A stretch of 64,000 bases of DNA from Candidatus Thorarchaeota archaeon (GCA_030612365.1 JAUWOA010000002.1:425-64424), one strand, 5' to 3'; shown: positions 1,033-14,247, counted from the first letter of the stretch. The notes: generated by a model from the letters alone, not told the origin. Program-made: numbers and translations.

Positions 1033-1640
1033 CGCACTTGTATGTCCCCCCCTCATCAAACGATGTGACACCCAGCTCCACGATCAATCTTGTCAATCTA
1101 CTGATGAGAAACACTAACAGACGCGTGACAGTACTCCGAGTAGGAGGAACGGTGGACCCTGACCCAGAGGTGTATGTTGTCACCCGGGTGGACTGGCGGG
1201 ATAAGGATCTAAACAGGCCAATTCTACCCCAATTGCCAAAGGTGCTTTCGATGCTGGAAACCCTTCGAGGCTCTAGGGGTGTGCCCAAGGAGATTCACCT
1301 TGACAGTACCGACGGTGTTGTGTGCTACATACCAACTGGCATCAGAATGTCCCAGCTACCAAGAAGCGCAAAGGCATCAGTTCAATTCATCATGTCCGTG
1401 GTCAACCAGACAGTCAGCCACTTCGATTCGACCCGGTCTGAGGTCGAAGACTGGTTCTGGAGGACAGCACGCAAGAGGGGCTTCAATCCTGAGATTGTCG
1501 AGAGGATCGCCCGAAGGGAGAAGCACTACGATTCGCCATCTCACGAGCATAGGTTCAGCAAGGTCATAGAGGATTACTTCTCTCTCAGATTCAAAGTCTA
1601 TCGCGCAGAGTCATGTTTGAAGCTGGAGGGAGCATACTGA
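1029..1640 (+). CDS. hypothetical protein
   Basis: 203-aa ORF overlapping the upstream stop by 4 nt. Its TGA overlaps the ATG of the XPD gene (TGATG). No motif recognised. Confidence 0.5.
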   Translation: MTHLYVPPSSNDVTPSSTINLVNLLMRNTNRRVTVLRVGGTVDPDPEVYVVTRVDWRDKDLNRPILPQLPKVLSMLETLRGSRGVPKEIHLDSTDGVVCYIPTGIRMSQLPRSAKASVQFIMSVVNQTVSHFDSTRSEVEDWFWRTARKRGFNPEIVERIARREKHYDSPSHEHRFSKVIEDYFSLRFKVYRAESCLKLEGAY

Positions 1641-3616
1641 TGGCTGTGATGCGATGGTTTCCGTACACTCCAAGGCTCCAGCAGGATCGGGCCGTGACGC
1701 ATGCTGCCCATGTATTTCAGGATAAGACAGTGGGCCTGCTATCGGCGGACTGTGGAGTTGGAAAGACAATTGCCGTGCTCTCAGGGTATCTTGCGGCACG
1801 GGCGAAAGATGCATCGTCGCGATTGATTGTACTTACGAGAACGCACTCTCAGTCAAAAGTCTTTGAGGATGAGCTTGGAGTCCTCAGGGAGGAGTCGGCT
1901 GCAATGTCAGCTGGGCTCCAATTGACGGCCACGAGCATGGTTTCGCGGGGGCATGTCTGCCCATTGACCGACGAAATGAACTCGGTGTCATCAATCGGGT
2001 TCCTACGTGCATGCGCACAGATGATAGGCGCAGGAAAGTGCAGCATGTACTGGAGCTTCTACAAACGGGGATCGGAGGGCCGACCTATAATCCGAGACGC
2101 TGCCCGGCAAACTGTTGACGCCCTGCTGAACGAGGGCGTGGTCACTCGGGATGAAGCGGAGGACGTGGGGCGCTCGGAAGGAGTATGCCCGTACGAGGTC
2201 TTGCGCTGGTGTGCGCGCAAAAGTAGAGTAGTGATTGGTCCTTACGGCTACCTGTTCAGGGAGAGAGTCCGGAATGCGCTCCTCGCATCACTTGGAATGA
2301 GCTTACATGAGGTCGACCTGATTGTCGATGAAGCACACAACCTAGCATCACATGTACTGGGCTCGGAAACCGCATGTGTCAGTCTGTCTGATCTTGAATG
2401 GCTGAGAAAGCATAACTCAGAGATAGAGCGTGAAACGCAGGTCGAGTGGCTCCCTGAGGCGGTTGACTTTCTCTGGGAAACCGTGATGACTAACCTTGAT
2501 GATATGCACTCCGAGAAAAATCTTGAGAAGTGGGATGTACTGCCAAGGTTTGTAGATGAGTCACAGATACAGAACCTACTGCTTGGGACAAAGATTGGCC
2601 TGGATGAGTCTGATGGCACAGTGCCCACGGAAACCCCGCTGGACCGATTGGTGGAATTCCTCTACACGGGGCACCGAGCAGTTCAGAGTGAGGACTGGCA
2701 TGTCACGTTAGAGGTTAGGAAGCCTTGGAGGCAAGAGTCGAACAGCCGTGATGCTGATCTGAAGATTAGACCACTGAATGCAGCTGGATTGTCGGCCCCC
2801 GTACTCAGGGGCGCAAGATCTGCGTTGCTCATGTCTGGTACTCTGAGGCCACTGCAGCACTATGCGGACCTGCTGGGAGTGTCAGGTGCCCTGATGGAGA
2901 GCCTGATGAGTCCTTACCCTCATGGGAGTCGTCTTGTGCTCCTTGACAAGGATATCACAACCAAGTACACAGCGCGGGGCGAACAGCTGTGGAGGACCAT
3001 AGCAGGAAGAATCTCAACAGCCTTGACAGCGATGCCCTCCGAGAAGAGCGCCCTGATTGCCTTTCCAAGCTACAGGATAATGGAGGATGTTCTGAGCTAC
3101 GGCATAGATTGTGGATTCAGAGCAAGGCTAGAGGAAGCCCCAGGAGAGCGCATTGAGGTTGTCAAGGACGCACTTGAGGAAGGGCCTCATACGGTGTTTT
3201 GTGTCTACGGAGGCAAATTCTCTGAGGGCGTTGACCTTGTGGAGGGCGGGTCGAGTATGATTGACCTGATTATCGGAGTTGGGATTCCATTCAGCCCTCC
3301 AACCAGCTACCAGAAAGCCCTCCAAGGATGGTACGAGAGAAGATTCGGGAAGGGTGCAGGCTACTACTACTCGTCAATCGTACCGTCTTTTCGGATGGTT
3401 GCACAGCTTGTAGGCAGACTTCGAAGGAGCCCTGAGGATCGGGGAGTGGTCGTGCTTCTCGACAAGAGGTTCCAGCAATACATCAGAGTCTTTGGAGATG
3501 ACATGGTTTCGGACCACTGGCCCTACTCAGGAGTAGACGAGATGAGGGGTGCCATTGACCTATTTGTGAGACAGAGGAACAGAAAGGCGGAGGCGAAGGG
3601 AGAGGTTGGCGTTTAA
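1640..3616 (+). CDS. xpd: XPD/Rad3 (DinG-like) superfamily-2 DNA helicase with 4-Cys Fe-S domain
   Basis: N-terminal FPYTPR..Q, Walker A DCGVGKT, DEAH box (VDEAHNL). Four spaced Cys (VCPL, RACAQ, GKCSMY, GVCPYE) lie between motifs I and II. Later motifs SGTLRP, GKFSEGVDL, RLRRSPEDRGVVVLLDKRF. The ATG at 1640 is preferred over the longest ORF start (1613) because it overlaps the upstream stop. Confidence 0.85.
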   Translation: MAVMRWFPYTPRLQQDRAVTHAAHVFQDKTVGLLSADCGVGKTIAVLSGYLAARAKDASSRLIVLTRTHSQSKVFEDELGVLREESAAMSAGLQLTATSMVSRGHVCPLTDEMNSVSSIGFLRACAQMIGAGKCSMYWSFYKRGSEGRPIIRDAARQTVDALLNEGVVTRDEAEDVGRSEGVCPYEVLRWCARKSRVVIGPYGYLFRERVRNALLASLGMSLHEVDLIVDEAHNLASHVLGSETACVSLSDLEWLRKHNSEIERETQVEWLPEAVDFLWETVMTNLDDMHSEKNLEKWDVLPRFVDESQIQNLLLGTKIGLDESDGTVPTETPLDRLVEFLYTGHRAVQSEDWHVTLEVRKPWRQESNSRDADLKIRPLNAAGLSAPVLRGARSALLMSGTLRPLQHYADLLGVSGALMESLMSPYPHGSRLVLLDKDITTKYTARGEQLWRTIAGRISTALTAMPSEKSALIAFPSYRIMEDVLSYGIDCGFRARLEEAPGERIEVVKDALEEGPHTVFCVYGGKFSEGVDLVEGGSSMIDLIIGVGIPFSPPTSYQKALQGWYERRFGKGAGYYYSSIVPSFRMVAQLVGRLRRSPEDRGVVVLLDKRFQQYIRVFGDDMVSDHWPYSGVDEMRGAIDLFVRQRNRKAEAKGEVGV

Positions 3617-4205
3617 TTCTGCTAGTAGTCAGCTGAGGTATGTCGTGCCTGGAGCTGTTGGCGCAGCTTGGTCACTCAGGATGGCCCTTGACCAGTCATA
3701 TCAGGTTGTTCTTGAGTCGACAATAGGGCTGTTCCTCCTGTTGGTCGCCTTTGTGATATACATGAAGGGATGTGAAAAGAACCTTCTACTCTGGAACAAC
3801 GATACTGCGGTTCTCGCCACTGTAAAACCTCTCACAGTGGAAGTGTGCGCAGCCCGACTCATGACCAGTGTCCCGCTTGGGATTGACCTAAGCTATTCCG
3901 CGGGTAGAGTCCTTGAAACCATGACAATCAGGTTCAATGAGGAAAAGAATGCAGAACTGCGGTTCTTTGTCTGTCGACCTTTGGGACGTGGGGTTACACG
4001 CGTAGGCATGATGGTGGTTCGTCAAGCACCAAACATGCGTAGGTTGGCGTCTGTTGTTAAGAAACTGTCAGAGAAGGTGCTGGAGGATGTAATGGTCTTG
4101 GAGAGTGCTCTGCGCGCAGCCTATGCCCATATGCCCATTGCACGAGCGGAGCTAGATGATATCGCTCTCATAAACTCTGGAGGTGTGGATTTCGTTGTCA
4201 ACTGA
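3606..4205 (+). CDS. hypothetical single-pass membrane protein
   Basis: 199-aa ORF overlapping the XPD stop. One hydrophobic helix (IGLFLLLVAFVIYM). No catalytic motif. Confidence 0.5.
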   Translation: MAFNSASSQLRYVVPGAVGAAWSLRMALDQSYQVVLESTIGLFLLLVAFVIYMKGCEKNLLLWNNDTAVLATVKPLTVEVCAARLMTSVPLGIDLSYSAGRVLETMTIRFNEEKNAELRFFVCRPLGRGVTRVGMMVVRQAPNMRRLASVVKKLSEKVLEDVMVLESALRAAYAHMPIARAELDDIALINSGGVDFVVN

Positions 4206-4482
4206 GGTGCAAGCCCAGATCACAATCCCCACATCGCTACGCCCTCAGGCTGTCATGGACTCTTTGTCAATTGGCCATGGTTACAGTTGGATTGTTCTTG
4301 TTCCTACGCCAATGAGGATAGCTCATGGAAGCACATCGTGCGGGGACATGCCCGAGCTACTGATTGTAGGCAAGACCCTCCTGACGAGCGGGGGAAATGA
4401 AGTTTACATTGGCCGCCTGAGGAGGATGCTTGAGGTGTTGTCGGGCACTGTTGTGAAAGTGCGGAGGGATAGCGATGTCTAA
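4183..4482 (+). CDS. hypothetical small protein
   Basis: Fills the gap between the flanking genes and overlaps both. Alternative ATG at 4255. No motif recognised. Confidence 0.35.
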   Translation: MWISLSTEVQAQITIPTSLRPQAVMDSLSIGHGYSWIVLVPTPMRIAHGSTSCGDMPELLIVGKTLLTSGGNEVYIGRLRRMLEVLSGTVVKVRRDSDV

Positions 4483-6826
4483 GGGCGGCCATATCATGGG
4501 TTCGAAGCCCGAGAGAGACCCTCTGGAGGAGATAAAACAAGCCCAGCTTTGGGTTACGCAGAGCACCGAGCTTAGATGGAGCGATAGAAGTGTTCGTCCT
4601 CCATGGACGAAAGTCTTTCTGGCAACGGCAATGATTATCGTAGGAACATTCTGGATGCCGTGGCTTACAATCACGATGACGGTACTAGCATCCGTCATTC
4701 TTCTGATTCTTCTCAACCTATTCTCGGTGAACAGAACCCTGAAGGAATGGACACGTGTTCCTGAACCCGATCTATCGCTTGAGGAGGATGAGAAGAAGAA
4801 GTACGTCTGCAGCAGGGGAATAGGAGGCGAGCGGCATATCGTGGGCATGAGCCTCAAGTCGGTTTCCTCCGACCTAGGGGGTGATCTTGGAAAACTCATT
4901 CGGGGGGTAGATACTGGGTATGGTCTGTGCCTTACGGTGGCTATGAGTCCTCAGAATCCCAAGACTGTCCTTGAGGGCGATATCCTGCCGGAAGCACTTC
5001 AGACTTACTTGGAGCACATGTCATCAAACGGGCTCAAAGGTTACATGCTTCGCAGAGGCGGCCTGTGGAAAGCAAGCACGTCGGTATATGGACATTCAAG
5101 AGACCGACTTGCACTTCCCAGATTCGAGGCTTCCATCAAGGGAGCAATTCCGGAACCCGGCTGGAAGAGGGACAAGGCTAAAGATATCTTGGAACGAATC
5201 ATGACTCTTCAACTCACTAGGAACAGCGCATTCCATGCCAGTGGGAGCGAGTTGACGGAGTGGCTCGTTCAGCTTAAGAGCGAACTTGGACCGGAGGTTG
5301 GCAGCAACGTACCCGGCGAGTTCATAGCACCTATACGTGACAGGCCGGGCGATTACCGCCTAGGCGTGACAATCAATCCTGAAACTCTCCAGACTGGACC
5401 AATGGCAGGCATGTGTCACAATGATCTAACCGGAGGAATGTTGCTCTGTGGAGGTGATTGGCCGGAACGACGCAGAGTAATGATGCTCTTGACCAAGCAG
5501 CTTCTGGATGCCGGCAAGCGAGTAATGATTGTGAGTTCCAGGTCCGAGGCGATGGAGTTCGCAGCTCTTACAGACTCGGGGATTGGGTTGACTCTGGGAA
5601 AGGACCTCGTTCTCAATCCAGTCGATGCTGAGGACATTCCGAGAAGCCTGTACGTGCCCCAACTGAAGATGGCACTTGAAACCATTGCAGACACAGACCT
5701 GAGTTCCGCCGCAGATTTTGAATTGGCATTAGGGAGGGCGGTTGCCTTGTCGAACGCAACGCTCGCAGATGTCACACTCCCAAGCGCGGACACAGACATG
5801 ATGGATGGCACAGAGGGTCCTACAACGGACAGGACCTCTCGGAAAACAGAAGCAGGGATGGAAGCAGTCAAGGTGCTTTACCAAGGGTCAGGTTCAAGAG
5901 CTTTCTACGGGCACCAGACTGTTAAGCTATCTAAGCTAGCAGAACAGCAGCTGAGCGTCACGGTCATATCATTGGGGTCAATCATTCTCGATACATTCGG
6001 GTGGGACCTCTTCAGCATGAAGCTAGCCGGCCTGCGCAGTGATTCCGATTTAGTTGTGATCATTGATGGTCCCTTCAATCTCAAGCTCTATGGACCATAC
6101 GATTCCAGGTACAAGAGACGCGTCCCTTGGACTGATCAACTCACACGCGACTTGACAAGAAGAGGACCTCTGATTGTGAGCATTGAGAGACCATCGGGTC
6201 TTGCCACGGAGGTTGTGGCTAGGTTATCATCGTGCATATCCCTACGGCTTCGCAACAATTGGGATATCGGTGTTGCTACAGACATTCTCGGGTTGACAGT
6301 CATTGGCCATGGTTTGCACAGTAAGGCCCGCCAATCCTCCAGAGAGTCATCATATCTTAGAGTGATGGAGAAGGGAATTGCGCTAATGGTACATGACGGT
6401 GCAGAAACCTGCCAGCCAATACAACTTGATGACGCCCCTGCCTTGCTACCACCATCGACCGATGAGTTGTCGAACAGGGCAGCAGGGGTTTCCAATGGTA
6501 TAACCAGCGACGATGGAAATACAGGCCATACGACTCTGATAGGTCATGTAGCTGGAAGCGAAACTGACTTGGCTGTGAGTGTGCTCAGATTGCTTCAGCG
6601 ATACGAACCCCTCACAGAGGAGGCACTTCACAGGTTTATCATCTCAAGCAGTGGACGGGAGGATATGGATGTCGAAGCAGTGCTTGTCAGGCTAGAACAT
6701 GCCAGTATGATCCTGCGGGGCCACGAGTCACATGGCGGAGTGTCCTACGCGAATTACAGACTAACCATGAAAGGCACGATGGCACTACACCAGATGGCGG
6801 GAGAAGAAGCCACAGCTACAGGATGA
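4475..6826 (+). CDS. membrane-anchored HerA/FtsK/VirD4-like P-loop-fold protein with degenerate Walker motifs and C-terminal wHTH
   Basis: Two N-terminal TM helices (FLATAMIIVGTFWMPW, TMTVLASVILLILLNLF). The core has HerA/DUF87-like order, but Walker A reads GGDWPERR (nt 5450..5473) and the Walker B position reads LVVIIDGPFN. ISLRLRN..D follows. The C-terminus (LRLLQRYEPLTEEAL...YRLTMKG) looks like a winged helix. Confidence 0.6.
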   Translation: MSKGGHIMGSKPERDPLEEIKQAQLWVTQSTELRWSDRSVRPPWTKVFLATAMIIVGTFWMPWLTITMTVLASVILLILLNLFSVNRTLKEWTRVPEPDLSLEEDEKKKYVCSRGIGGERHIVGMSLKSVSSDLGGDLGKLIRGVDTGYGLCLTVAMSPQNPKTVLEGDILPEALQTYLEHMSSNGLKGYMLRRGGLWKASTSVYGHSRDRLALPRFEASIKGAIPEPGWKRDKAKDILERIMTLQLTRNSAFHASGSELTEWLVQLKSELGPEVGSNVPGEFIAPIRDRPGDYRLGVTINPETLQTGPMAGMCHNDLTGGMLLCGGDWPERRRVMMLLTKQLLDAGKRVMIVSSRSEAMEFAALTDSGIGLTLGKDLVLNPVDAEDIPRSLYVPQLKMALETIADTDLSSAADFELALGRAVALSNATLADVTLPSADTDMMDGTEGPTTDRTSRKTEAGMEAVKVLYQGSGSRAFYGHQTVKLSKLAEQQLSVTVISLGSIILDTFGWDLFSMKLAGLRSDSDLVVIIDGPFNLKLYGPYDSRYKRRVPWTDQLTRDLTRRGPLIVSIERPSGLATEVVARLSSCISLRLRNNWDIGVATDILGLTVIGHGLHSKARQSSRESSYLRVMEKGIALMVHDGAETCQPIQLDDAPALLPPSTDELSNRAAGVSNGITSDDGNTGHTTLIGHVAGSETDLAVSVLRLLQRYEPLTEEALHRFIISSSGREDMDVEAVLVRLEHASMILRGHESHGGVSYANYRLTMKGTMALHQMAGEEATATG

Positions 6827-9081
6827 TGCGATATGACGAGTCTGAAGACCAAAATGCAACAGCAGGAGGAACAAGCTTGACATCCGCCATGGATACCACC
6901 ACATACGTGAAGGGCATTCTCGCAGGCGTGGGGCTCACTCCTAGGGGTATCCAGAGCAAGGCAATAGAGGCAGGACTGCTTGAGGGCAAGAGTATCATGG
7001 TATGTTCCCCTACAGGTTCGGGCAAGACGCTTGTTGGAGAGATGGCGCTCCTTAGAGGGGTCAGCGACATTTGCAAAGGCATCTACCTCGTTCCCCTGAG
7101 GGCGCTGGCCACGCAGGTTGTCAGTGTTCTCAAGGAGCGCTATGCTGACCAGGGAATCAGGATTGAGGTCTCCACAGGGGACTTTCAGACCGATGGCTCC
7201 GACCTAGCAGAGGCTCAGATACTTGTGACGACCTACGAGAGAGCAGACTCCCTCGTGAGGCACAAGGTTGACTGGCTCAACAAGGTTGGAGTGTTGGTCA
7301 TTGACGAGGTACAGAATATCGGGCACACGTCAAGAGGCGCGCGTTTAGAGAGCGTCATTATGAGGATGCGGAAACTGACTGAGGACCTCCAGATAGTTGC
7401 CCTATCTGCTACTGTCGGAGAGCCCTACATGCTAGCTGATTGGCTAGGGTGCCATCTAGTGGAATCTGATGTCCGTCCTGTGCCGTTGACGTGCAAGCTG
7501 GTTCCAACAACAGATCGTGAGAAGACTGTGCAGCAACTTGTGATGGCCACTGTGCAGGCTGACGGTCAGGTGATTGTATTCCACAGGACAAGACGCGAAA
7601 CTGAGGCTGAGGCTAACCGTCTGAAGGATAGTGTGGGGCGACAGCTGCGCACCAATGAACGGACGACCCTTGACAGGGAGATGGACTCCTTAGAGAACTG
7701 GAATGTCACAATACCCTCGGAAATGCGGCCATTTCTGCACGATGGTGTTGCATACCACCATGCTGGTCTTGGAGCCCGCACGAGAAGGCTTGTCGAAACC
7801 ATGTTCGATCGTGGACTGTTGAGGGTGGTCTGTGCAACTACAACACTGGCAGCTGGGATGGATCTACCTGCACGAACAGTGGTACTCACATCAGCAAGGT
7901 CCCCCCAACATCACAAACGGTTCCTTCCCGCCAATCAGGTCCATCAAATGCTGGGCAGGGCGGGCAGACCGGGAAAGGATGTTAGGGGTTTTGGAGTGAT
8001 TCTCACTGGTAGCCAAGGCGAGGTCAAGATGCTGACAAAGGAGTACTTTACGAATGAAGTCAGTCTTGATACTGGAAAGATAGTTCTGACGCCAAAGTAC
8101 GAGCCAGTGACTAGCGAGCTTGGGACATCGAACAGCCTTACAGAACAACTGCTAGTAGCACTCGATTTTCTAGGAGAGGCATCCCTTGAAGAGGTCGAGC
8201 AGGAGTACCTTGGAGAGTCATATTTGTTCTACTGTGGCAGATGGCTAACGAACACCCCCATGAGGATTGTGCAACTCGGTGAGGTGACTGCGCAGGCCGC
8301 AATCGAGCGCCACGCCAATCCGAATATGGTCCGTTCTGCAAGAGAAAATATACTGGGTACGGTCAAGATTAGAGAGCGTGGTGATACAGTCATCGGGGGG
8401 ATTGTTTCTGTGCTGAGGAGTGGACAACAGACATGCAGGTTCTCAGCAAGGATGACATCTGATGGTACGCTGGAGGGTCCGATGTGCTCATGCGGAAGCC
8501 CCATGAACAAGCATGGCTTTCTGTGCAACCATCTTGTTGCGCTTGGCATGGCAGCATCATCGGAGATGATTCAACTGGCCAATTATGTAATCCCTCTCGC
8601 GCTGAGTGAAACAAGTCCGAGTGGCCTTCTGATACGCCTTGGACTCTTGGAGGGTGGTGAGGGCGGCAAGTTGCGACCCACAACCCTCGGCAGGACTGTG
8701 AACAGACTCTACCTCAAGATTACTACCTTCAAAGAGATGATGGCTCTTATTCCGACAATTGGGAGTAACACAGTCCTAATGTCGGTGCTGAGGCATCTGG
8801 TATCACTTGAAACAGGGCAGAAACAGGGTGAAACCTTTGAGGCCCTCATCGGCTCTGTCGCATCAACCAATCTCTCGATGAGAGAAATGGCTCGTATGAC
8901 TAACCTTGCCGTAGGCGACATAAAAGCCCTACTTGACAAGTCACGCTTGCTTCTATACTCGATTGTAGCAGTGGCAGACAGGGGCAACATGGAGCGGGTG
9001 TCTGAGATGGTGCAAGACCTTCTCTCGATTATAGATTCAAGATTACATCACATGGAGAGCGAAAACAATGACAGTAACTGA
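6823..9081 (+). CDS. Ski2/Hel308-like superfamily-2 helicase with embedded SWIM-type zinc finger
   Basis: Motif I SPTGSGKT, motif II VIDEVQ (Q replaces the usual H, nt 7303..7314), SAT, HHAGL, TTTLAAGMDLPA, QMLGRAGRPG. C-x-C-x10-C-x-H (CSCGSPMNKHGFLCNH, nt 8485..8532) lies in the C-terminal third. ATGA overlap with the upstream gene. Confidence 0.85.
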   Translation: MMRYDESEDQNATAGGTSLTSAMDTTTYVKGILAGVGLTPRGIQSKAIEAGLLEGKSIMVCSPTGSGKTLVGEMALLRGVSDICKGIYLVPLRALATQVVSVLKERYADQGIRIEVSTGDFQTDGSDLAEAQILVTTYERADSLVRHKVDWLNKVGVLVIDEVQNIGHTSRGARLESVIMRMRKLTEDLQIVALSATVGEPYMLADWLGCHLVESDVRPVPLTCKLVPTTDREKTVQQLVMATVQADGQVIVFHRTRRETEAEANRLKDSVGRQLRTNERTTLDREMDSLENWNVTIPSEMRPFLHDGVAYHHAGLGARTRRLVETMFDRGLLRVVCATTTLAAGMDLPARTVVLTSARSPQHHKRFLPANQVHQMLGRAGRPGKDVRGFGVILTGSQGEVKMLTKEYFTNEVSLDTGKIVLTPKYEPVTSELGTSNSLTEQLLVALDFLGEASLEEVEQEYLGESYLFYCGRWLTNTPMRIVQLGEVTAQAAIERHANPNMVRSARENILGTVKIRERGDTVIGGIVSVLRSGQQTCRFSARMTSDGTLEGPMCSCGSPMNKHGFLCNHLVALGMAASSEMIQLANYVIPLALSETSPSGLLIRLGLLEGGEGGKLRPTTLGRTVNRLYLKITTFKEMMALIPTIGSNTVLMSVLRHLVSLETGQKQGETFEALIGSVASTNLSMREMARMTNLAVGDIKALLDKSRLLLYSIVAVADRGNMERVSEMVQDLLSIIDSRLHHMESENNDSN

Positions 9082-10888
9082 GGAAGAAATGCCAATACAT
9101 AAGGCTGAGGAGTCCAAGAGTCCCAAAGGAGAATCGAAGACTTACGATATAGTGGAGGTCCTAAAGGCTACTGACCACCTAACCCATGTTTCCCCCAATG
9201 GGCTGGTGTTGGGAGTAAGGGTCTCGGGGATTTCAGGGGCAAGAGGGGTCCACGTTGAGATTGTTCATATACTGGACCTTAGGAATGCGGTCTTTGGCAA
9301 GGGTGGTTTTGCCTTGCAGGCATCGGTTCTTGAGAGTGTTAACAGGGGACTCCCTAGCCTCTTGAAGGACGTTGGGCTTCGAGAACGATTGGAGGCGACA
9401 TCACCGTTGACCCCTTGGGGACGAGTGCCCATGCGTACTCTGCGTTCTGCGTCTGGCAAGCGAAAGTCCTTGGTTTATGAAACCAGACTTGTCTACGTTG
9501 TGACTCAGGATGTCCGATCCTCGGCAGACCTGAGCTGGTTGACTGCAAATGAACGGGTGGTCAGTGTGCACGACTTTTCCCTTGCTAGAAAGAGCGACGC
9601 AAGAACCATTCTGCCCGACCTCGAGAAGAGCCTAATCGTGGATAAGTGGGATGGTTTCTCAAGGGCTATCCGGAATGGATGGTACGGAGTGCTAGCGGCT
9701 GGGGCCAGTGTACTCGGGGGTGTGACATCCCTCATGGTCCTGTTATCGAACTCAGGCAACCTCACTGTACCATTGGCCTTTATGGGGGTGTGTGGAGCGG
9801 GAGCAGCATGGCTACTCAAGCAGTCCCACAATGGGCTAAACGAGTTCCGCAAAATAATCGAGAGTGAACAAGCAGGAGTTGCATCTCTTGGAGATAGGAA
9901 ACGTGTAGCGGCTTCGATAAAGAATAATGAGAAGAAAATTAGGCTCATTGGCGACCTGAGCTTTGTGATATCCCCCTTAATGGCGTCAGCATCGAATAAC
10001 CTTGAAGATAGCGACGTTAACGGTGCCGTAGTGCTTGCAGAAAGGGTCTTGGATGAACTCGTAAGGCTCGCTCCATCTGATGAAGCCAAGAAGGGCATTG
10101 TGACCGGGGACGCTGGGATTGAGAGATTCATTGGCGTCTTCCGAAATGTAGGCGCAGACCTGACAGAGACGGAGGAGGTTTCTCTAGCCCTTGCTTACAC
10201 CGCAGTAACAGGACATGTCACTACGCCGCTAGGGGTAGAAGAAGCCCTGACGCATATGGCAGTCTTGAATACAAGTCTGTTCAATGCAGGTGTATTGAGT
10301 CCGACAGTTAGGGGCTCCATTGATGATATGTTCATCTCGAGGGCATTTCATGTAATCATTGACGAGTTCGGTGCAGATCTTGCCAAGCCAGAAGAGGAGA
10401 TTGTGCAGACCGTTGAGGGGGATGACTCTGGCATGGAGGAGCTAATTGGGGACATTGCAAAGTCCGGTCCGGTTTCAGAGGAACACGAGGAGGAAGCTAA
10501 CCCCGAGGTGGAAGAAACCCCTGAAGAAGAACTGCCAGTAGGAGCTCCCGCTGAGGTGGAATCCACAAAGGATGAAACTGAAACCGATTGTGTTGAGGCA
10601 GTCGAGGTCGAACTCGCGCCTCCGAGCAAAGCGGAACCCGACGGGACCCAGAATGATACTGATAGCAAGGAGAAGCGAGAGGAAGAGGCAATTCCTGAGG
10701 TCTCAGACGATGTGACTGTTGCAGAGGAATCAGAAGCGCTTGTGGTGGCGCAGTCTTCACTTGATGAGGTAGAGAACGAAAAGGACCCCTCTACGGGGCC
10801 TGAGGCCATCAGCAGGAGGAAGAAGAAGCAAGCCAAGCAACGTGCTATGGGTCGAACGAAGCGGGAGCGTGGTAAGGTCGCAGCTTGA
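9068..10888 (+). CDS. hypothetical membrane protein with acidic low-complexity C-terminal region and basic tail
   Basis: Two TM helices mid-protein (GVLAAGASVLGGVTSLMVLL, LAFMGVCGAGAAWLL). About 130 aa of E/D-rich sequence, then RRKKKQAKQRAMGRTKRERGK. Overlaps the upstream stop. Confidence 0.55.
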   Translation: MTVTEEEMPIHKAEESKSPKGESKTYDIVEVLKATDHLTHVSPNGLVLGVRVSGISGARGVHVEIVHILDLRNAVFGKGGFALQASVLESVNRGLPSLLKDVGLRERLEATSPLTPWGRVPMRTLRSASGKRKSLVYETRLVYVVTQDVRSSADLSWLTANERVVSVHDFSLARKSDARTILPDLEKSLIVDKWDGFSRAIRNGWYGVLAAGASVLGGVTSLMVLLSNSGNLTVPLAFMGVCGAGAAWLLKQSHNGLNEFRKIIESEQAGVASLGDRKRVAASIKNNEKKIRLIGDLSFVISPLMASASNNLEDSDVNGAVVLAERVLDELVRLAPSDEAKKGIVTGDAGIERFIGVFRNVGADLTETEEVSLALAYTAVTGHVTTPLGVEEALTHMAVLNTSLFNAGVLSPTVRGSIDDMFISRAFHVIIDEFGADLAKPEEEIVQTVEGDDSGMEELIGDIAKSGPVSEEHEEEANPEVEETPEEELPVGAPAEVESTKDETETDCVEAVEVELAPPSKAEPDGTQNDTDSKEKREEEAIPEVSDDVTVAEESEALVVAQSSLDEVENEKDPSTGPEAISRRKKKQAKQRAMGRTKRERGKVAA

Positions 10889-11564
10889 GAACGATTCCAT
10901 GTTCGGGCTTAACGGTCTGATACATCTCTCTGGAGTGGCTGGTTCTGGCAAGACCCTCTTTGCAGTCGCCTTGGCATCCAAGGCTACGCGGAGTGGGAAG
11001 GTGCTATGGATCAACACCGATGCGAAGACAGCATTTGTCAATCATCTGAAGGTCAACATTGATTCAGTGGGTGGCGACAGGATAGCAATCTCTATTCTCC
11101 CAATCATGGGTCATAAGCGCGTCCGAGAAGCCATTCTGAACCTTCCAGGCAGTCTTGACGAGGACACGGTGCTTATTGTAGTCGATCCCGTAACGCGAGC
11201 CTTGGACATGTCCCACAGAGAGGATGTGATGTGGGGTAGAGAGATGTTCGAGGAAGTGATGCCCACCCTTGCAGGTCTGATTGCTAGAGGATTGAATGTG
11301 ATTATTGTGTCTGAGAGCAGGAGCTTTGACCGCGAGCCTGTTGCCGTGTTTCATAGGTCGATAAAGGGGTGGGCTGATCACGACTTGGTGCTTTCTAGGC
11401 GGTATGGCACATCAGTCACCGACGTAACACGCTATCAGACTGAAGGTAAAGTTCCTTTCGTGCAATTCACACTAGCAGAGGAGGGGGTTGTGAAGGTGAC
11501 AGAATACAATGAAGGAGACAACTCGGAGGTGTCGGATTGTTCGGGAAGTCGATGCTCCGCATAG
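10842..11564 (+). CDS. RecA-superfamily ATPase (RadB/KaiC-like short RadA paralog)
   Basis: Intact Walker A GVAGSGKT (nt 10932..10955) and Walker B-like LIVVDPVTRAL. No N-terminal HhH domain. The ATG at 10899 (MFGLNGL) is an equally plausible start 10 nt after the upstream stop. Confidence 0.75.
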   Translation: MLWVERSGSVVRSQLENDSMFGLNGLIHLSGVAGSGKTLFAVALASKATRSGKVLWINTDAKTAFVNHLKVNIDSVGGDRIAISILPIMGHKRVREAILNLPGSLDEDTVLIVVDPVTRALDMSHREDVMWGREMFEEVMPTLAGLIARGLNVIIVSESRSFDREPVAVFHRSIKGWADHDLVLSRRYGTSVTDVTRYQTEGKVPFVQFTLAEEGVVKVTEYNEGDNSEVSDCSGSRCSA

Positions 11565-12508
11565 TGGGACTGGTAGTTGCTGGTGCCGTGGCACTTGCCT
11601 TGGGAGCCAGCCTGCTGAGTTCAGTTGTGGGAGTTGTAACTGCTCTAAGATCTGGGGATATGGTCCCGTTCATTGTTGTGGCAGTGACCACAGTCATCTT
11701 CCTCAGACTGTCTGCACGACCCTATGAGAAACGAACACCTGTTCACGTTTTGCTAGAAGTGCTCGGATGGACCTCTGCAATCTACTTGTTCGTGGTTGTT
11801 CTAATGTGGGTGCTTCCATTCGGAGTGGTGCCGGCAATCCTTGCAGCAGGGGTCACAGCTGTGTTGTGCGGGTTCGTAAGAGACCCAACCGGGCTCAATG
11901 AGAAAATGAGTCGAATTGCAGATGTTTCATCATCATTAGGTCTGAGTCCTACTGGGTTGAGCATCACCTCGCAATTAGACAGCACTCAATCGATGTGGGC
12001 GAGAATAGAGAATCTCCGGTATAAGGTCATAATCATTCCCCACAATCATTTTGACACAGTGATTGGCCTCCTCAAGGACCGCCCCAAACTTCCAGTATCC
12101 CTCACACGACTGGAGGATACAGATGCTCTGATAGTGAGAGATGAGGAGTGGACTGACAGAGTCCTTGAAGTGTTGAGAGAGAGTGGCGTTCCTGACGCAC
12201 ATATTGCCTCCCCTCTTCTTGAAAAAGCGATACTTGCACACCCCCTGTTGGAGCAGGATCACGGGGTCAAGGTCAATGACTATCAATTCACCTGTGACGC
12301 TGACACCGTGGAAAAATTACTAGCAATTCAACCGCTGCGAATGACCGTGTATCCCGATCCCAAAGGACTGGTTGTGATGGTTTTCAGTGACAGCGTACCC
12401 GGACTCAACCTTGAACCCCTTCCGATGGGAAGAGCGGCATCAGCAGTTATGGCCCGTGATATATCACACCTACCCAGAGGTGAACCTACTATTGGCAATT
12501 CCACTTGA
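11537..12508 (+). CDS. hypothetical polytopic membrane protein with soluble C-terminal domain
   Basis: Four or more hydrophobic helices in the first ~110 aa, then a ~200-aa soluble region. Overlaps the upstream gene. Confidence 0.55.
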   Translation: MFGKSMLRIVGLVVAGAVALALGASLLSSVVGVVTALRSGDMVPFIVVAVTTVIFLRLSARPYEKRTPVHVLLEVLGWTSAIYLFVVVLMWVLPFGVVPAILAAGVTAVLCGFVRDPTGLNEKMSRIADVSSSLGLSPTGLSITSQLDSTQSMWARIENLRYKVIIIPHNHFDTVIGLLKDRPKLPVSLTRLEDTDALIVRDEEWTDRVLEVLRESGVPDAHIASPLLEKAILAHPLLEQDHGVKVNDYQFTCDADTVEKLLAIQPLRMTVYPDPKGLVVMVFSDSVPGLNLEPLPMGRAASAVMARDISHLPRGEPTIGNST

Positions 12509-13205
12509 TTCAATTGACATAGCAACAGAGCCAGTGACGAGGCTGGTGCCACGACAACTTGACAGGGTGTTAGGACAACTACTGATTCCAGGTCAGGTCA
12601 GCCTTATTCACGGCCCTGACAGGTCTCCACTGACGACTATTGCGCATGCTGTTGCGGTGGGTGCTGTCAAGTCTGGCGGACGGTCCGCATACCTGGATTC
12701 TGGTAGCAACTACAGCTCCGCCTTGACGAGGGTGCTGTGCAACAGAAGTGGTTCTCCGGAGGATTTGCTAAAGGAGATTTCAGTGGGACCGGTGATGAGT
12801 CTTGCAGATCTTGAGGGGATGGTCCTTCAGGTGTCCTCCATGGAAGGAATCACAATGGTTGTGGTGGATAGTCTGACGGGAGTGCTGAACCTAACGGGTG
12901 CCCCGAGGAGCAAGGGCAGACAGAGGAAACTCTTCGCCACCCTTGAGGTTCTGAGGGGTGTCGTGAATGACAATAATATCCATCTATTCATCACAGACCA
13001 CTCGACAAGGAACTGGAACAGCGGAACACCCAGCCCGATTGGAGGCAACGTCATCGCTCATGGGGTTGACTCTCTCATCAGAGTGGACCGCCTTGCTGTC
13101 AAGGAGGGTATGTTCAGGCTTGAGGTGGAGAGAAGTCCGGTCAATCCAGCTGACAAGGGAGTGATTATACAAATTGGACTGAATGGAATCAGGTCGATCA
13201 AATAG
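12387..13205 (+). CDS. RadA/RadB-like RecA-fold paralog with degenerate Walker A
   Basis: RQLDRVLGQLLIPGQVSLIHGPDRSPLT occupies the position of LD.LLGGG....i.G..GsGKT, so the P-loop is lost (nt 12612..12635). Walker B strand MVVVDSLTG and GGNVIAHGVDSLIRV are retained. The true start is uncertain; a GTG at 12534 would avoid the 122-nt overlap. Confidence 0.7.
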   Translation: MTAYPDSTLNPFRWEERHQQLWPVIYHTYPEVNLLLAIPLDSIDIATEPVTRLVPRQLDRVLGQLLIPGQVSLIHGPDRSPLTTIAHAVAVGAVKSGGRSAYLDSGSNYSSALTRVLCNRSGSPEDLLKEISVGPVMSLADLEGMVLQVSSMEGITMVVVDSLTGVLNLTGAPRSKGRQRKLFATLEVLRGVVNDNNIHLFITDHSTRNWNSGTPSPIGGNVIAHGVDSLIRVDRLAVKEGMFRLEVERSPVNPADKGVIIQIGLNGIRSIK

Positions 13206-13211
13206 GAGGAA

Positions 13212-14204
13212 TTGGGGGTGGGTGCAAAGAACTGGAACTTCGTGCCTTGGGAGTGGGCTAGCATTGACGAGCTTTCTCCAAGGACAATCGCTATAGACGC
13301 CCCGAACTATCTTATCCGCAGACTGTCTACCATCCGGAGGGGTAGCAGGTTCAATCGAGTTCCCTTAAGTCATATTCATGTTGTTCTCGGTATAATCCGC
13401 GCAGCGCTTCGCACTCATGTCCTTCCAGTACTGGTGTTCGATGGCCCTCCTGAGACACTGAAACGTGCTCCCAATCCCGAGCTCATCATTGCGGCACACG
13501 ATCTATACCGCACCTTCTACTCTGAGAGAGACCCCTACAACCACAAGCTGGTCAATGACCTGCAGGAAAGTCCTGCACTGAGGATGTACTTTGCAGCGTT
13601 TCACATCAAGGATCTCTGCAAAAGCCTGGGTATCCCATGTATCAACTCGCCCTCTGAGGCTGAGATGGCGGCTGCAGTCATGTGTCGTGATGGGTTGGTT
13701 GGCACGGTTGTGTCGAATGATGCTGATGCGCTATTGTTCGGAAGCCCGCATGTCACAAAACAGCTCCATCTCACAAAGAGGGAAATTTTCAGGGTCACGC
13801 AGAGTGAGCTTGAGGCCAAGATGGACCTAGACCTAGAGCATCTGAGGGACCTTGCTATTGTGTGCGGGTGCGACTTCCACAAGCAGGGTGTGAAGGGAGT
13901 GGGGCCTCGCAAGGGGGTGGTCCTCCTTCAGAGGCACGGAGGTCTTGTAGGACTTCTCAAGGCGCGTGGCTATACTGCATTTCAGAGAGAGGATTACATT
14001 CTCGCCCGAGAGGTCTTTGATGAGCCTAATCACATGTCCAGCAATGGGTTTGATATCACTCTCAGACCTCCAATGGTCCCAATGGCAGTCAGGCTGCTCA
14101 GCGCTGTTATGGGAACGGAGAAGGCCAAAGAAACCGTGGCGAAGATAATACGACTGTGGAAAAATTTCGGTGAACAGCAGACAACACTGGAGCAATTTGC
14201 ATGA
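13212..14204 (+). CDS. fen1: flap endonuclease FEN-1 (XPG/Rad2 family)
   Basis: MGV N-terminus, IAIDAPNYL, VLVFDGPPETLK, SPSEAEMAAAVM, SNDADALLFGSP, H3TH region CGCDF..GVKGVGPRKG. The extreme C-terminus QTTLEQFA is PIP-box-like. AGGAGGA at 13204..13210; start at TTG 13212 or GTG 13218. Confidence 0.85.
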   Translation: MGVGAKNWNFVPWEWASIDELSPRTIAIDAPNYLIRRLSTIRRGSRFNRVPLSHIHVVLGIIRAALRTHVLPVLVFDGPPETLKRAPNPELIIAAHDLYRTFYSERDPYNHKLVNDLQESPALRMYFAAFHIKDLCKSLGIPCINSPSEAEMAAAVMCRDGLVGTVVSNDADALLFGSPHVTKQLHLTKREIFRVTQSELEAKMDLDLEHLRDLAIVCGCDFHKQGVKGVGPRKGVVLLQRHGGLVGLLKARGYTAFQREDYILAREVFDEPNHMSSNGFDITLRPPMVPMAVRLLSAVMGTEKAKETVAKIIRLWKNFGEQQTTLEQFA

Positions 14205-14247
14205 CGAGAAGCGAGGGGCATATCCCGAGAATAGGAGGACGATAGGA

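Follow-up and report, generated by a model that had tools for sequence, protein, structure and literature searches.

A membrane-anchored VirB4/HerA-fold protein without a Walker A motif, encoded among DNA-processing genes in Asgard archaea

ATPases of the HerA/FtsK/VirB4 class are the standard DNA pumps of prokaryotes. What, then, is the role of an entire clade of this fold that has no P-loop, yet is strongly selected and always stands alongside a Hel308-type helicase and RecA-fold proteins? The gene that raises this question lies in a 64,000-nucleotide stretch of DNA from a Candidatus Thorarchaeota archaeon (GCA_030612365.1 JAUWOA010000002.1:425-64424; the window). Its open reading frame is uninterrupted over 783 aa. 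A GGAGG lies upstream of its start, which overlaps the stop of the upstream ORF, p99 (ATGTCTAA), and its stop shares an ATGA with the start of a Hel308-like gene. Its features are as follows.

4475-6826, + strand: focal gene, a membrane-anchored VirB4/HerA-fold protein of 783 aa without Walker A
4475-4609, + strand: N-terminal peptide, residues 1-45, predicted cytoplasmic, disordered in AF2
4610-4738, + strand: two-helix hydrophobic hairpin, residues 46-88 (Kyte-Doolittle, AF2)
4757-5350, + strand: VirB4-type N-terminal domain (NTD), residues 95-292 (AF2 and Foldseek)
5243-5335, + strand: most conserved sequence block, residues 257-287, at the NTD/core junction
5351-6454, + strand: HerA/VirB4/FtsK-fold RecA-like core, about residues 293-660 (Foldseek, profile matches)
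5438-5479, + strand: degenerate Walker A, M-L-L-C-G-G-D-W-P-E-R-R-R-V, residues 322-335
6050-6079, + strand: degenerate Walker B, L-V-V-I-I-D-G-P-F-N, residues 526-535
6317-6367, + strand: family signature, residues 615-631 (alignment of 32 homologues)
6536-6823, + strand: predicted C-terminal winged helix-turn-helix (wHTH) and terminal helix, residues 688-783 (AF2, profiles)

A preliminary description had read this protein as two N-terminal transmembrane (TM) helices, a HerA/FtsK-type core and a C-terminal wHTH, and each of these elements was recovered. In AF2 the hairpin consists of helices 45-58 and 63-82; basic residues on both flanks lead to a prediction that both of its ends are cytoplasmic, as in a VirB3-like anchor. 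Searched by Foldseek, the full-length AF2 model (pLDDT 74) matched VirB4/TrwK, HerA and TrwB/VirD4 (E 8e-14 to 1e-8, probability 1.0). The best E values were 8e-14 for TrwK/VirB4, 3e-11 for HerA and 9e-9 for TrwB, and the top matches were 7o43_A and 8rtd (8e-14 to 1e-10). Modelled alone (residues 95-292; pLDDT 79, pTM 0.73), the NTD significantly matched only TrwK/VirB4, in 13 chains (E 2.6e-5 to 2.4e-3, probability 1.0, TM-score about 0.51-0.55), and the next-best match had a probability of 0.18. By profile, the core matched HerA-type PDB chains (E 3.6e-7 to 8e-4), with the Asgard-wide profile A3 finding 8j4u at 3.6e-7, 8xau at 4.2e-7, 8yho at 9.8e-7 and 8ziq at 1.7e-6. HerA was marginal with a Thorarchaeota-only profile (E 0.1-0.9) and became significant once remote Asgard members were added. 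Because the NTD matches TrwK/VirB4 only and the core matches the HerA clade by sequence, the closest architecture is that of VirB4 or CedB/CedD, not that of a VirD4 coupling protein. The earlier fold assignment, which a match to an unrelated family would have refuted, is supported, and the proposed architecture is refined. The focal protein hit no Pfam or NCBIfam family at E <= 0.1, and single-sequence scans against PADLOC and PHROGs and a phmmer search of the PDB returned no match; hhalign against single paralogues of the same genome stayed below 3% probability and nevertheless aligned Walker B as expected.

Does the core retain the motifs of an ATPase? Its P-loop site reads G-G-D-W-P-E-R-R, versus G-x-T-G-S-G-K-T in canonical relatives. 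The string LLCGGDWPERRRV, earlier singled out as a lost Walker A, begins at residue 323, and its placement at the P-loop position was upheld in several ways. AF2 predicts a strand (322-325) followed by a helix (329-345) with pLDDT >90; in the family profile, FGTTGSGKT of the canonical HerA P0179 aligns onto CGGDWPERR; and HMMER aligns 'VGSTGSGKS' of the PDB HerA 8xau onto the family's 'vGgtseeR'. What is left of Walker A is G326 and G327, with R332 at the Lys position and neither G-x-G nor Ser/Thr, in a loop whose length from G326 to R332 equals the canonical G-to-K length. A canonical P-loop elsewhere would have undone this reading. Regular-expression searches for [AG]xxxxGK[ST] and GK[ST] found none in the whole protein, whose sole 'GK' is the GKR at 347-349; this was rejected as an alternative P-loop, being located where helix 329-345 ends, ahead of the following strand, and unconserved in remote homologues.

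The loss is shared throughout the family. GK[ST] occupies the P-loop site in 0 of 84 Thorarchaeota-type homologues, and Arg is found at the Lys position in 83 of them and in 71 of 88 remote homologues, where the only three canonical sequences are all outgroup HerA proteins. The same loss is seen in about 85 remote Asgard homologues, whose named members come from Loki-, Hel-, Baldr-, Freyr- and Promethearchaeota, and thereby extends to a pan-Asgard superfamily; the phosphate-loop G-x-G and the Mg-binding Ser/Thr are missing in every family member. Judged from these alignments, the P-loop loss is ancient.

Walker B had also been called ablated, with no acidic pair, and here the verdict is mixed. 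LVVIIDGPFN does begin at residue 526, where 'VVIIDGPFN' aligns to the HerA-type 'lllEEAHh' and 'VVLEEANN' (HMMER, hhalign), and the focal protein does lack the pair. Ablation overstates the case, since D531 is kept and 83 of 84 orthologues have an acidic residue at that position. Of the 84, 26 (31%) retain an acidic pair and 54 carry a Glu three residues downstream; the focal protein has Gly at the pair's catalytic-Glu position and Phe at the place of the downstream Glu. Together, R332, G326/G327, the Walker B acid and the acidic pair of some orthologues could point to some remaining binding of phosphate or nucleotide instead of a purely structural role.

The family also carries motifs of its own. 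Residues 1-45 contain I-L/M-G-S-x-P-E-x-D-P (G9, P12, D15, P16). The block at 257-287, G-x-E-L-x-E-W-L-V-Q-L-x-S-E-L-x-x-E-V-G-S-N-V-P-G-E-F-I-x-P-I, has partly low pLDDT, and in remote lineages the gene is split in two there. Within the signature at 615-631, H-S-K-A-R-x-S-S-R-E-S-S-Y-L-R-V-M, residues K617, R619, S621, R623, E624 and S626 do not vary across the 32 aligned homologues, and its pan-Asgard form is Y-S-x-x-R-x-x-x-Y-Q-x-x-Y-L. AF2 confidence is low at the two most conserved motifs, this signature included. In the C-terminal region, an R-Y-E-P-L-T motif is invariant, and AF2 gives an H-H-H-beta-beta-H topology over residues 688-782 (H688-710, H715-726, H733-742, E746-753, E756-763). 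MarR/PadR regulators match it weakly by profile against the PDB (E 0.004-0.2; 3bpv and 3l7w at 0.0043), and PadR/HTH_34 matches remote homologues at E about 2e-4, below the gathering score. The model and profiles support a MarR/PadR-like winged helix, a putative DNA-binding domain.

Full-length homologues number 70, and intact full-length ORFs occur in >80 lineages. Within its GTDB family, 54 of 86 genomes carry the gene, as do 19 of 23 when high-quality genomes alone are counted; the other 4 of 23 lack the module, as do some same-genus assemblies, and it is therefore not essential. Identity follows taxonomy, falling from 93% between members of the genus to 40-48% across the family and 25% across the order. 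Against a same-genus orthologue, dN/dS is 0.11 for the whole gene, with 0.076 for the core and 0.069 for the wHTH, ratios by which the gene is under purifying selection. The family has so far been found in Asgard lineages alone and is annotated everywhere as 'hypothetical protein'; full-text literature searches, a Ski2-family survey and a 2026 Asgard review yielded no published description of the family or the module.

The surroundings of the gene are equally distinctive. Its operon in the window comprises the following genes in addition to the focal one.

3-587, + strand: RadA paralogue, C-terminal part, cut by the contig end
592-1032, + strand: zinc-ribbon protein, 146 aa
1029-1640, + strand: 203-aa protein with no assigned family, conserved in Thorarchaeota loci
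1613-3616, + strand: XPD/Rad3-type helicase
3606-4205, + strand: p199, single-pass membrane protein with no assigned family, always immediately upstream
4183-4482, + strand: p99, small soluble protein with no assigned family, invariably the gene directly before the focal one, whose start it overlaps
6823-9081, + strand: Hel308/Ski2-like helicase, motifs intact, translationally coupled to the focal gene
9068-10888, + strand: p606, no assigned family, with a central TM hairpin, acidic tail and basic C-terminus
10842-11564, + strand: KaiC/RadB-like RecA-fold ATPase, 240 aa, GVAGSGKT intact
11537-12508, + strand: TM323, polytopic membrane protein of 323 aa with no assigned family
12387-13205, + strand: RadB-like paralogue, own P-loop lost (HGPDRSPLT)
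13212-14204, + strand: FEN1/XPG-type flap endonuclease

A small ORF with a histidine-kinase-like H-box, read by eye, follows FEN1 in the window. The order XPD-p199-p99-focal-Hel308 is kept in 20 of 20 Thorarchaeota loci, and an operon of roughly 15 genes is common to two distant Thorarchaeota. In other Asgard families, all seven loci have a Hel308-like gene 0-8.4 kb from the homologue and small proteins with 1-3 TM segments; RadA is nearby in three, a KaiC/RadB-like ATPase in three and FEN1 in one, and at one locus a membrane protein carries an HhH DNA-binding domain. None of the operon's four membrane proteins matches a known family by sequence models, and no VirB2, VirB6 or CedA homologue was recognisable among neighbouring membrane proteins (Pfam/NCBIfam, PADLOC, PHROGs). 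Likewise, a Pfam scan covering two operon genes absent from this contig, together with remote neighbours, assigned no family to most of these proteins. The locus is single-copy and has the same flanking chromosomal genes, p628 and a giant surface protein, in distant genomes; giant surface proteins recur beside the module (18235-26061 in the window; L002, L035 and L040). Its GC content is unremarkable.

Two further ideas were set aside. A housekeeping recombination set is contradicted by further copies of RadA, XPD, Hel308 and FEN1 elsewhere in the genome, with a second XPD and a second FEN1 on another contig and, also on another contig, a RadA that scores far higher. An active membrane-anchored HerA/VirB4-like paralogue, P0219 on contig C58, was considered as a co-located motor, and its neighbourhood shares nothing with the operon; as P0219-type paralogues are near-universal in the family (81 of 86 genomes), their co-occurrence is uninformative.

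We give somewhat better than even weight to the reading that the gene encodes a membrane hub for DNA processing, CedB/CedD/VirB4-like but without hydrolysis. The protein would be a descendant of a VirB4/CedB-type membrane ATPase, held in the membrane by its VirB3-like hairpin. Its VirB4-type NTD and HerA-clade core probably still form an oligomeric ring or hub, and its winged helix is a probable binder of DNA or of a partner, as the FtsK gamma domain suggests by analogy. Since its P-loop is unable to bind nucleotide canonically, the protein itself would do no mechanical work. Instead, its task may be to hold DNA-processing components together at the membrane: the Hel308-like and XPD helicases, the RecA-fold ATPases, FEN1 and the four membrane proteins. 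Energy would come from the active helicases and the KaiC/RadB-like ATPase, and the process served may be either the uptake or exchange of DNA or recombinational repair tethered to the membrane. This scaffold role and its energising by neighbouring ATPases and helicases are suggested by the conserved order of the genes and by translational coupling, and physical contact with the operon partners is presumed on the same footing.

Other explanations deserve to be weighed against such a hub. The protein might still be an NTPase with a non-canonical P-loop, Arg332 standing in for the Walker Lys and Asp531 binding the metal, and pump DNA as VirB4, CedB and HerA do. The near-invariant Arg exactly at the Lys position, the canonical spacing, the retained Walker B acid (with a full acidic pair in some orthologues) and the strong constraint on the core are all in keeping with this. 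However, P-loop NTPases of the HerA/FtsK/VirB4 class lose hydrolysis when the Walker Lys and Ser/Thr are replaced, and the whole family is without both the phosphate-wrapping G-x-G and the Mg-binding Ser/Thr. Moreover, the focal protein has Gly for the catalytic Glu and Phe for the downstream Glu of most orthologues, and the family does not conserve the QRPS-type motif seen in the HMMER alignment with HerA. We therefore think continued hydrolysis quite improbable. A membrane-tethered transcription regulator or sensor, whose wHTH controls the operon or other genes and whose dead ATPase body senses a ligand or partner with no DNA processing, seems to us very unlikely. The resemblance of the wHTH to MarR/PadR regulators speaks for it, as do the label 'predicted transcriptional regulator' that one source gives a remote homologue and the H-box ORF after FEN1. 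Yet FtsK-type translocases also have a C-terminal wHTH and are not regulators; a regulator would have no use for a 550-residue VirB4/HerA body that is more constrained than most of the remaining protein, nor would one expect its translational coupling with a helicase to be so strictly kept throughout the phylum.

A part in anti-virus defence, or in an integrated mobile element, would place the protein with the HerA partners of Sir2, DUF4297 and TdpB or with Hachiman-type systems. Indeed, its best PDB relatives by sequence are defence HerAs (8j4u, 8xau, 8ziq), the Hel308-like neighbour scores on PADLOC HamB and PDC-M23B and XPD on a type-IV DinG model, and presence across the family is patchy. 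Against this, the focal protein and five unannotated partners have no PADLOC match, and six tested proteins, the focal one included, have no PHROG match. The single-copy locus with constant flanks, its ordinary GC content and the taxonomic gradient of identity do not fit a mobile element; no Sir2, nuclease or HEPN effector is fused or adjacent in the Thorarchaeota operon, and no integrase was found among the loci inspected. Only a slight chance is left to this reading. As for a decaying relic without function, which the vanished ATPase motifs might suggest, it merits almost no credence: the intact ORFs, low dN/dS, invariant family-specific motifs and conserved operon position appear to have effectively refuted it already.

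A more ambitious form of the hub reading, tentative and on balance unlikely, is an Asgard-wide, mostly vertically inherited, T4SS/Ced-derived machine for cell-to-cell DNA exchange that is directly coupled to recombination. The dead VirB4-like ring would be the cytoplasmic dock of a conduit made of the operon's membrane proteins, the Hel308-like and XPD helicases would thread the DNA, the RadA paralogues and FEN1 would integrate it, and the giant surface proteins would mediate cell-cell contact. If true, the closest archaeal relatives of eukaryotes would possess a prokaryotic 'mating plus recombination' apparatus. 

More broadly, and apart from that reading, the clade points to an undescribed organisation of recombination or DNA transfer at the membrane in these closest archaeal relatives of eukaryotes. 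It offers a concrete set of proteins, namely the proposed dead ring, the helicase coupled to it and a RadB-like ATPase. Should the module's task be to handle incoming or exchanged DNA, it would inform how homologous recombination was tied to genetic exchange before sex arose in eukaryotes; should it be to tether repair to the membrane, a new layer of archaeal genome maintenance would come into view. It also defines a family without a Pfam or NCBIfam model.

It is useful to contrast the hub proposed here with known systems. Among structures, VirB4 (TrwK of plasmid R388) is the best whole-chain match and the sole significant match of the NTD. VirB3-VirB4 fusions are known, and the focal hairpin, preceding the NTD, mimics that arrangement. 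Unlike VirB4, the focal protein matches no Pfam/NCBIfam VirB4 model, lacks Walker A and the catalytic Glu and has an extra wHTH, and no other T4SS genes were identified with it. Likeness to HerA lies in the fold and in sequence homology from Walker B to the 'lrL..D' block. The focal protein differs in having neither a DUF87 match nor a HAS-barrel, a VirB4-like NTD, a membrane anchor and a lost P-loop; a genome scan with PF01935 found other genes and not this one. Whereas HerA works in HerA-NurA, Sir2-HerA, DUF4297-HerA or TdpAB, the focal operon has no NurA, Sir2 or nuclease partner, and the genome carries its canonical HerA-NurA pair separately, on another contig.

Archaeal DNA import provides a closer parallel. 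CedB and CedD combine a HerA-clade ATPase with VirB4-like NTD parts and import DNA (PMC11868833, PMC11823120), and Ted loci hold Rad50 and HerA-like genes (PMC9905601). Compared by published description in the case of Ced, crenarchaeal CedB/CedD and TedB of Thermoproteales resemble the focal family in being archaeal and membrane-associated, in pairing a HerA-clade core with a VirB4-like NTD (PMC11868833), and in being encoded with small 1-2-TM proteins, the Ted loci also adjoining DNA-repair genes (PMC9905601). Published accounts present CedB and CedD as ATPases driving the import of DNA, whereas the focal family lacks Walker A, carries a C-terminal wHTH and is tied to Hel308, XPD, RadA paralogues and FEN1; near it, nothing resembling CedA/VirB6 or CedA1/VirB2 was recognised.

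FtsK/SpoIIIE share the order of membrane anchor, RecA-like core of the same superfamily and C-terminal winged helix. FtsK, however, is an active motor with canonical motifs and its own, different linker and alpha/beta domains, and it was not among the top Foldseek matches listed. Its winged helix is the gamma domain, which reads DNA. VirD4/TrwB share with the focal protein a pair of TM helices at the N-terminus and the fold of the core (TrwB, E about 1e-8). In coupling proteins, however, the TM helices lead straight into a nucleotide-binding domain with its all-alpha domain, whereas a VirB4-type NTD intervenes in the focal protein; they are also active NTPases and work with relaxases, none of which is encoded in the focal operon. 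Finally, there is precedent for degenerate FtsK-like domains in a membrane machine: those of EccC/EssC in type VII secretion no longer carry out hydrolysis and act as platforms for regulation or substrate docking. EccC joins its degenerate domains to an active one in a single chain, whereas the focal protein is wholly degenerate and any motor would be a separate protein.

The focal protein, the 783-residue product of the ORF at 4475-6826, is best rated as belonging to a clade of VirB4/CedB-like proteins that lacks the P-loop. In the DNA-import system of Crenarchaeota, CedB and CedD join a VirB4-like N-terminal domain to a HerA-clade core (PMC11868833), and the predicted architecture of the focal protein matches that published description. 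Full-text searches returned no description of the family or its gene module, a 2026 Asgard review does not mention the module, and in a 2024 survey of archaeal Ski2-like helicases the terms RadA, "synteny" and "genomic context" do not occur.

Features of the window (coordinates, strand where assigned, product)
4475-6826 (+): focal gene, 783 residues
10842-11564: KaiC/RadB-like protein, 240 residues
12387-13205: RadB-like paralogue
14170-14979: ORF of 269 residues overlapping the 3′ end of the FEN1 gene
15516-17402 (−): protein of 628 residues, downstream of the operon
18235-26061 (+): surface protein of 2608 residues, downstream of the operon

The fold comes from structure prediction. The focal protein was assigned to no family by Pfam, NCBIfam, PADLOC or PHROGs, and phmmer against all PDB sequences gave no match. 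An AF2 model built from an alignment of 32 homologues (mean pLDDT 74, residues 320-540 mostly >85) was compared with the PDB by Foldseek, and all of its best matches have probability 1.0. They are led by TrwK/VirB4 of plasmid R388 (7o43_A, E 8e-14; 8rtd chains) and include HerA (4d2i, 9x1m), the defence HerAs 8sub, 8j4u, 8ziq and 8xau, TdpA, and TrwB/VirD4 (1gl7, 1e9s; E ~1e-8). Thus, the HerA/FtsK-type fold named in the preliminary description is borne out by the model. To choose among these fold relatives, residues 95-292 were modelled separately (pLDDT 79, pTM 0.73). The significant Foldseek matches were 13 TrwK/VirB4 chains only (E 2.6e-5 to 2.4e-3, TM ~0.51-0.55), and the next match had a probability of 0.18. 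Because this region matches TrwK/VirB4 chains alone, the modelled N-terminal domain is of VirB4 type. VirD4 coupling proteins and HerA lack such a domain, so the proposed VirD4/HerA likeness holds for the core fold but not for a coupling-protein architecture.

A profile that took in remote Asgard homologues, with canonical ATPases left out, matched HerA-type chains in the PDB by sequence (8j4u, 3.6e-7; 8xau, 4.2e-7; 8yho, a DUF87 protein, 9.8e-7; 8ziq, 1.7e-6; YjgR, 1.5e-5; STIV B204, 2.6e-4). Its last 90 positions match MarR/PadR winged-helix regulators (E 0.004-0.2), in agreement with the predicted H-H-H-beta-beta-H topology of residues 688-782 and with the C-terminal wHTH read earlier from the sequence; sub-threshold PadR/HTH_34 matches in the remote homologues themselves agree with this too. 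The two N-terminal TM helices are likewise supported by an unbroken hydrophobic stretch at residues 46-88 in a hydropathy scan and by AF2 helices at 45-58 and 63-82. Basic residues at both ends of this stretch fit a predicted hairpin whose two termini are cytoplasmic. Taken together, the Foldseek matches, the Asgard profile and the AF2 topology give a predicted architecture of TM hairpin, VirB4-like N-terminal domain, HerA-clade core and wHTH.

Several short elements are also conserved. The N-terminal cytoplasmic peptide I-L/M-G-S-x-P-E-x-D-P-L-E-E (window 4496-4531), which precedes the hairpin, is conserved across Thorarchaeota orthologues and predicted to be disordered, and may therefore be a short docking motif. 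The most conserved blocks of all, SELxxEVGSNVPGEF and HSKARxSSRESS (window 5243-5335 and 6317-6367), have the lowest AF2 confidence, a pairing that suggests that folding or function of these blocks depends on a complex. Both lie in family-specific motifs, the junction motif …ELSEWLVQLxSELxxEVGSNVPGEFIxPI at residues 257-287 and HSKARxSSRESSYLRVM at residues 615-631, the latter with the pan-Asgard form YSxxRxxxYQxxYL.

Both strings on which the preliminary description relied were located, LLCGGDWPERRRV from residue 323 and LVVIIDGPFN from residue 526. Three independent lines set the P-loop position: in the AF2 model, a strand (322-325), a loop and a helix (329-345) provide its geometry; in the family HMM, H-V-A-I-F-G-T-T-G-S-G-K-T of the canonical HerA P0179 aligns onto G-M-L-L-C-G-G-D-W-P-E-R-R; and in HMMER, "IAIVGSTGSGKSH" of PDB 8xau aligns with the family's "GilvvGgtseeRfl". 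Since these agree, the first glycine of the motif falls at G326, and where the Walker lysine is expected there is R332; G-x-G and the Mg-binding Ser/Thr are lost. Neither [AG]xxxxGK[ST] nor GK[ST] occurs anywhere in the 783 residues, so a canonical P-loop has not been overlooked elsewhere. At Walker B, V-V-I-I-D531-G-P-F-N aligns with HerA-type l-l-l-E-E-A-H-h and V-V-L-E-E-A-N-N. The catalytic Glu is replaced by Gly, as the claim of ablation would have it, but one acidic residue, D531, is kept.

Residues at the Walker sites in 84 Thorarchaeota-type sequences covering the site and in remote sequences (88 covering the P-loop, 85 covering Walker B)
G326: Thorarchaeota-type 84/84; remote 50/88 (Asn in 32)
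G327: Thorarchaeota-type 80/84; remote 63/88
Lys position (332): Thorarchaeota-type Arg 83, Lys 1 (n=84); remote Arg 71, Lys 4 (n=88)
GK[ST] at the P-loop site: Thorarchaeota-type 0/84; remote 3, each of them an ordinary HerA serving as outgroup (P0179, P0199, P0207)
Acidic residue at 531: Thorarchaeota-type 83/84; remote 38/85
Acidic pair 531-532: Thorarchaeota-type 26/84; remote 15/85
Glu at 534: Thorarchaeota-type 54/84 (Phe in the focal protein); remote 19/85 (Asp in 34)

The motif loss is thus kept across orthologues. By these counts over all homologues, the loss of Walker A is ancient and universal in the aligned clade, and Walker B is eroded, not erased, with the focal protein toward the more degenerate end.

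The focal gene is a live gene. Its frame is open on the + strand, the start ATG and the stop codon of the preceding 99-residue ORF overlap (…GATAGCGATGTCTAA…) with GGAGG a few bases upstream, and its TGA overlaps the next ATG as ATGA. Comparison with an orthologue from the same genus gives a dN/dS of 0.11 for the whole gene, with 0.076 for the "dead" core, 0.069 for the wHTH and 0.14-0.16 for the N-terminal domain and anchor; a value of 0.48 is confined to a 30-residue linker. The catalytically degenerate core and the wHTH are therefore under strong constraint. A word search returned 70 full-length homologues (40-93% identity), and an exhaustive profile search with a cut-off of E <= 1e-3 returned 161 representatives. 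Within its GTDB family, 54 of 86 genomes have an orthologue, as do, counted from two tables, 19 of the 23 high-quality ones; the sister family of the order has one (25% identity). Remote homologues extend to at least 11 further families of the phylum, for 93/400 genomes overall, and the source names attached to members are all Asgard (Thor-, Odin-, Hod-, Prometh-, Freyr-, Baldr-, Loki- and Helarchaeota). Within the genus, the gene is present in genome G393 at 93% identity and undetected in G391, G392, G395 and G396 (assemblies 67-92% complete), which reflects gaps in these assemblies or else an operon that is truly present in some genomes and absent from others.

Two distant Thorarchaeota carry a matching same-strand operon of ~15 genes around the focal gene. 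The window holds only the last 13, because the contig begins 424 bp upstream.

Gene order of the operon
Genes 1-5: 251 aa; 155 aa; RadA paralogue; Zn-ribbon protein; ~205 aa
Genes 6-10: XPD; ~200-aa TM protein; ~100 aa; focal gene; Hel308-like helicase
Genes 11-15: ~520-600-aa TM protein; KaiC/RadB-like ATPase; ~320-aa polytopic membrane protein; RadB-like paralogue; FEN1

The core order of XPD, p199 and p99 (genes 7 and 8), focal gene and Hel308 is found in 20/20 loci of the family. The enzymes acting on DNA in the operon form a dedicated set of paralogues. Elsewhere the genome encodes a better RadA (contig C80), a second XPD (C61) and a second FEN1 (C126), further Ski2-like helicases, and a canonical HerA-NurA pair. 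The RadB-like paralogue has also lost its P-loop, with LIHGPDRSPLT where RadA/RadB have GxxGxGKT, so the operon sets two pseudo-ATPases beside active ones; the 240-residue KaiC/RadB-like protein keeps GVAGSGKT. The ORF overlapping FEN1 has, as read by eye only, an H-box like that of histidine kinases (HDIRGCFNAVLGYAQLL), and its C-terminal part is ATPase-like.

The association reaches across the phylum. Each of seven loci extracted from other Asgard families has a Hel308-like gene at a distance of 0-8.4 kb from the homologue, as well as small 1-3-TM proteins. Three of the seven also have RadA in the vicinity, three have a KaiC/RadB-like ATPase there, and one has FEN1. With ~5 Ski2-like genes per 3-Mb genome, chance would place one within ±10 kb in roughly 3% of lineages. 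By this rough estimate, 7/7 is far beyond chance and supports a real Hel308 linkage. In these remote lineages two neighbouring genes usually encode the protein between them (loci L036, L037, L039, L040 and L041). The first encodes the TM region and VirB4-like domain (~250-360 aa), ending in FF in 4/5 loci, often as …NFF, and the second the core and wHTH (~480-535 aa, about 520). The break coincides exactly with the F-Y-A-x-G-x-E-L junction motif seen in Thorarchaeota, where the protein is fused. One family has an expanded protein of ~1260 aa, a type whose named members are Lokiarchaeota.

Remote loci have further neighbours. A protein of 726 aa that combines an HhH DNA-binding domain (HHH_5, E 9e-15) with a C-terminal TM hairpin adjoins the 1261-aa homologue in L038 (14825-17005, −), and a PLD-type nuclease adjoins that in L041 (7875-8810, −). 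The 628- and 2608-residue proteins are conserved neighbours in L001/L002, in the sister-family locus L035 a homologous giant protein comes immediately after the module, on the same strand, and in the remote locus L040 the module adjoins a surface protein of 1081 aa that has a prenyltransferase-like toroid. Large surface proteins are thus recurrent beside the module.

We infer that the focal protein would oligomerise at the membrane, like its active relatives, and serve as a platform, since it lacks the canonical apparatus for NTP binding and hydrolysis. If the wHTH acts like the gamma domain of FtsK, it would contact DNA or a partner, and the work would be supplied by the coupled Hel308-like helicase, XPD and the small KaiC/RadB-like ATPase. 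The archaellum pairs a small KaiC-like ATPase, ArlH, with a hexameric membrane-associated ATPase, ArlI, in a comparable way. The process served could be Ced/Ted-like DNA import or exchange, or membrane-tethered recombinational repair. Ted loci with Rad50 and HerA-like genes are a precedent for a T4SS-derived importer joined to repair genes (PMC9905601).

Other readings fit parts of these data. The near-invariant Arg at the lysine position and the retained D531 would suit a non-canonical but active NTPase using Arg for Lys; set beside the lost G-x-G and Ser/Thr, we think this improbable. Slightly less probable is a membrane-tethered regulator, a reading that recalls the wHTH and the one member annotated "predicted transcriptional regulator", all others being "hypothetical protein". 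A defence or mobile-element module, to which the defence HerA matches might point, is less probable again, given that the focal protein has no PADLOC match. That the protein is a functionless relic, as its missing motifs alone might suggest, is excluded by the selection data and deserves almost no weight.

The same genome also encodes an active relative of similar layout, a 1250-aa protein on contig C58 (28626-32378), outside the window. It has an N-terminal hydrophobic stretch and intact GATGTGKT and VVLEEANN motifs, and its neighbourhood is unrelated to the focal operon. It may form a system of its own or else be a distant partner that serves as motor, and it is present in 81 of the 86 genomes of the family, including all 23 high-quality ones.
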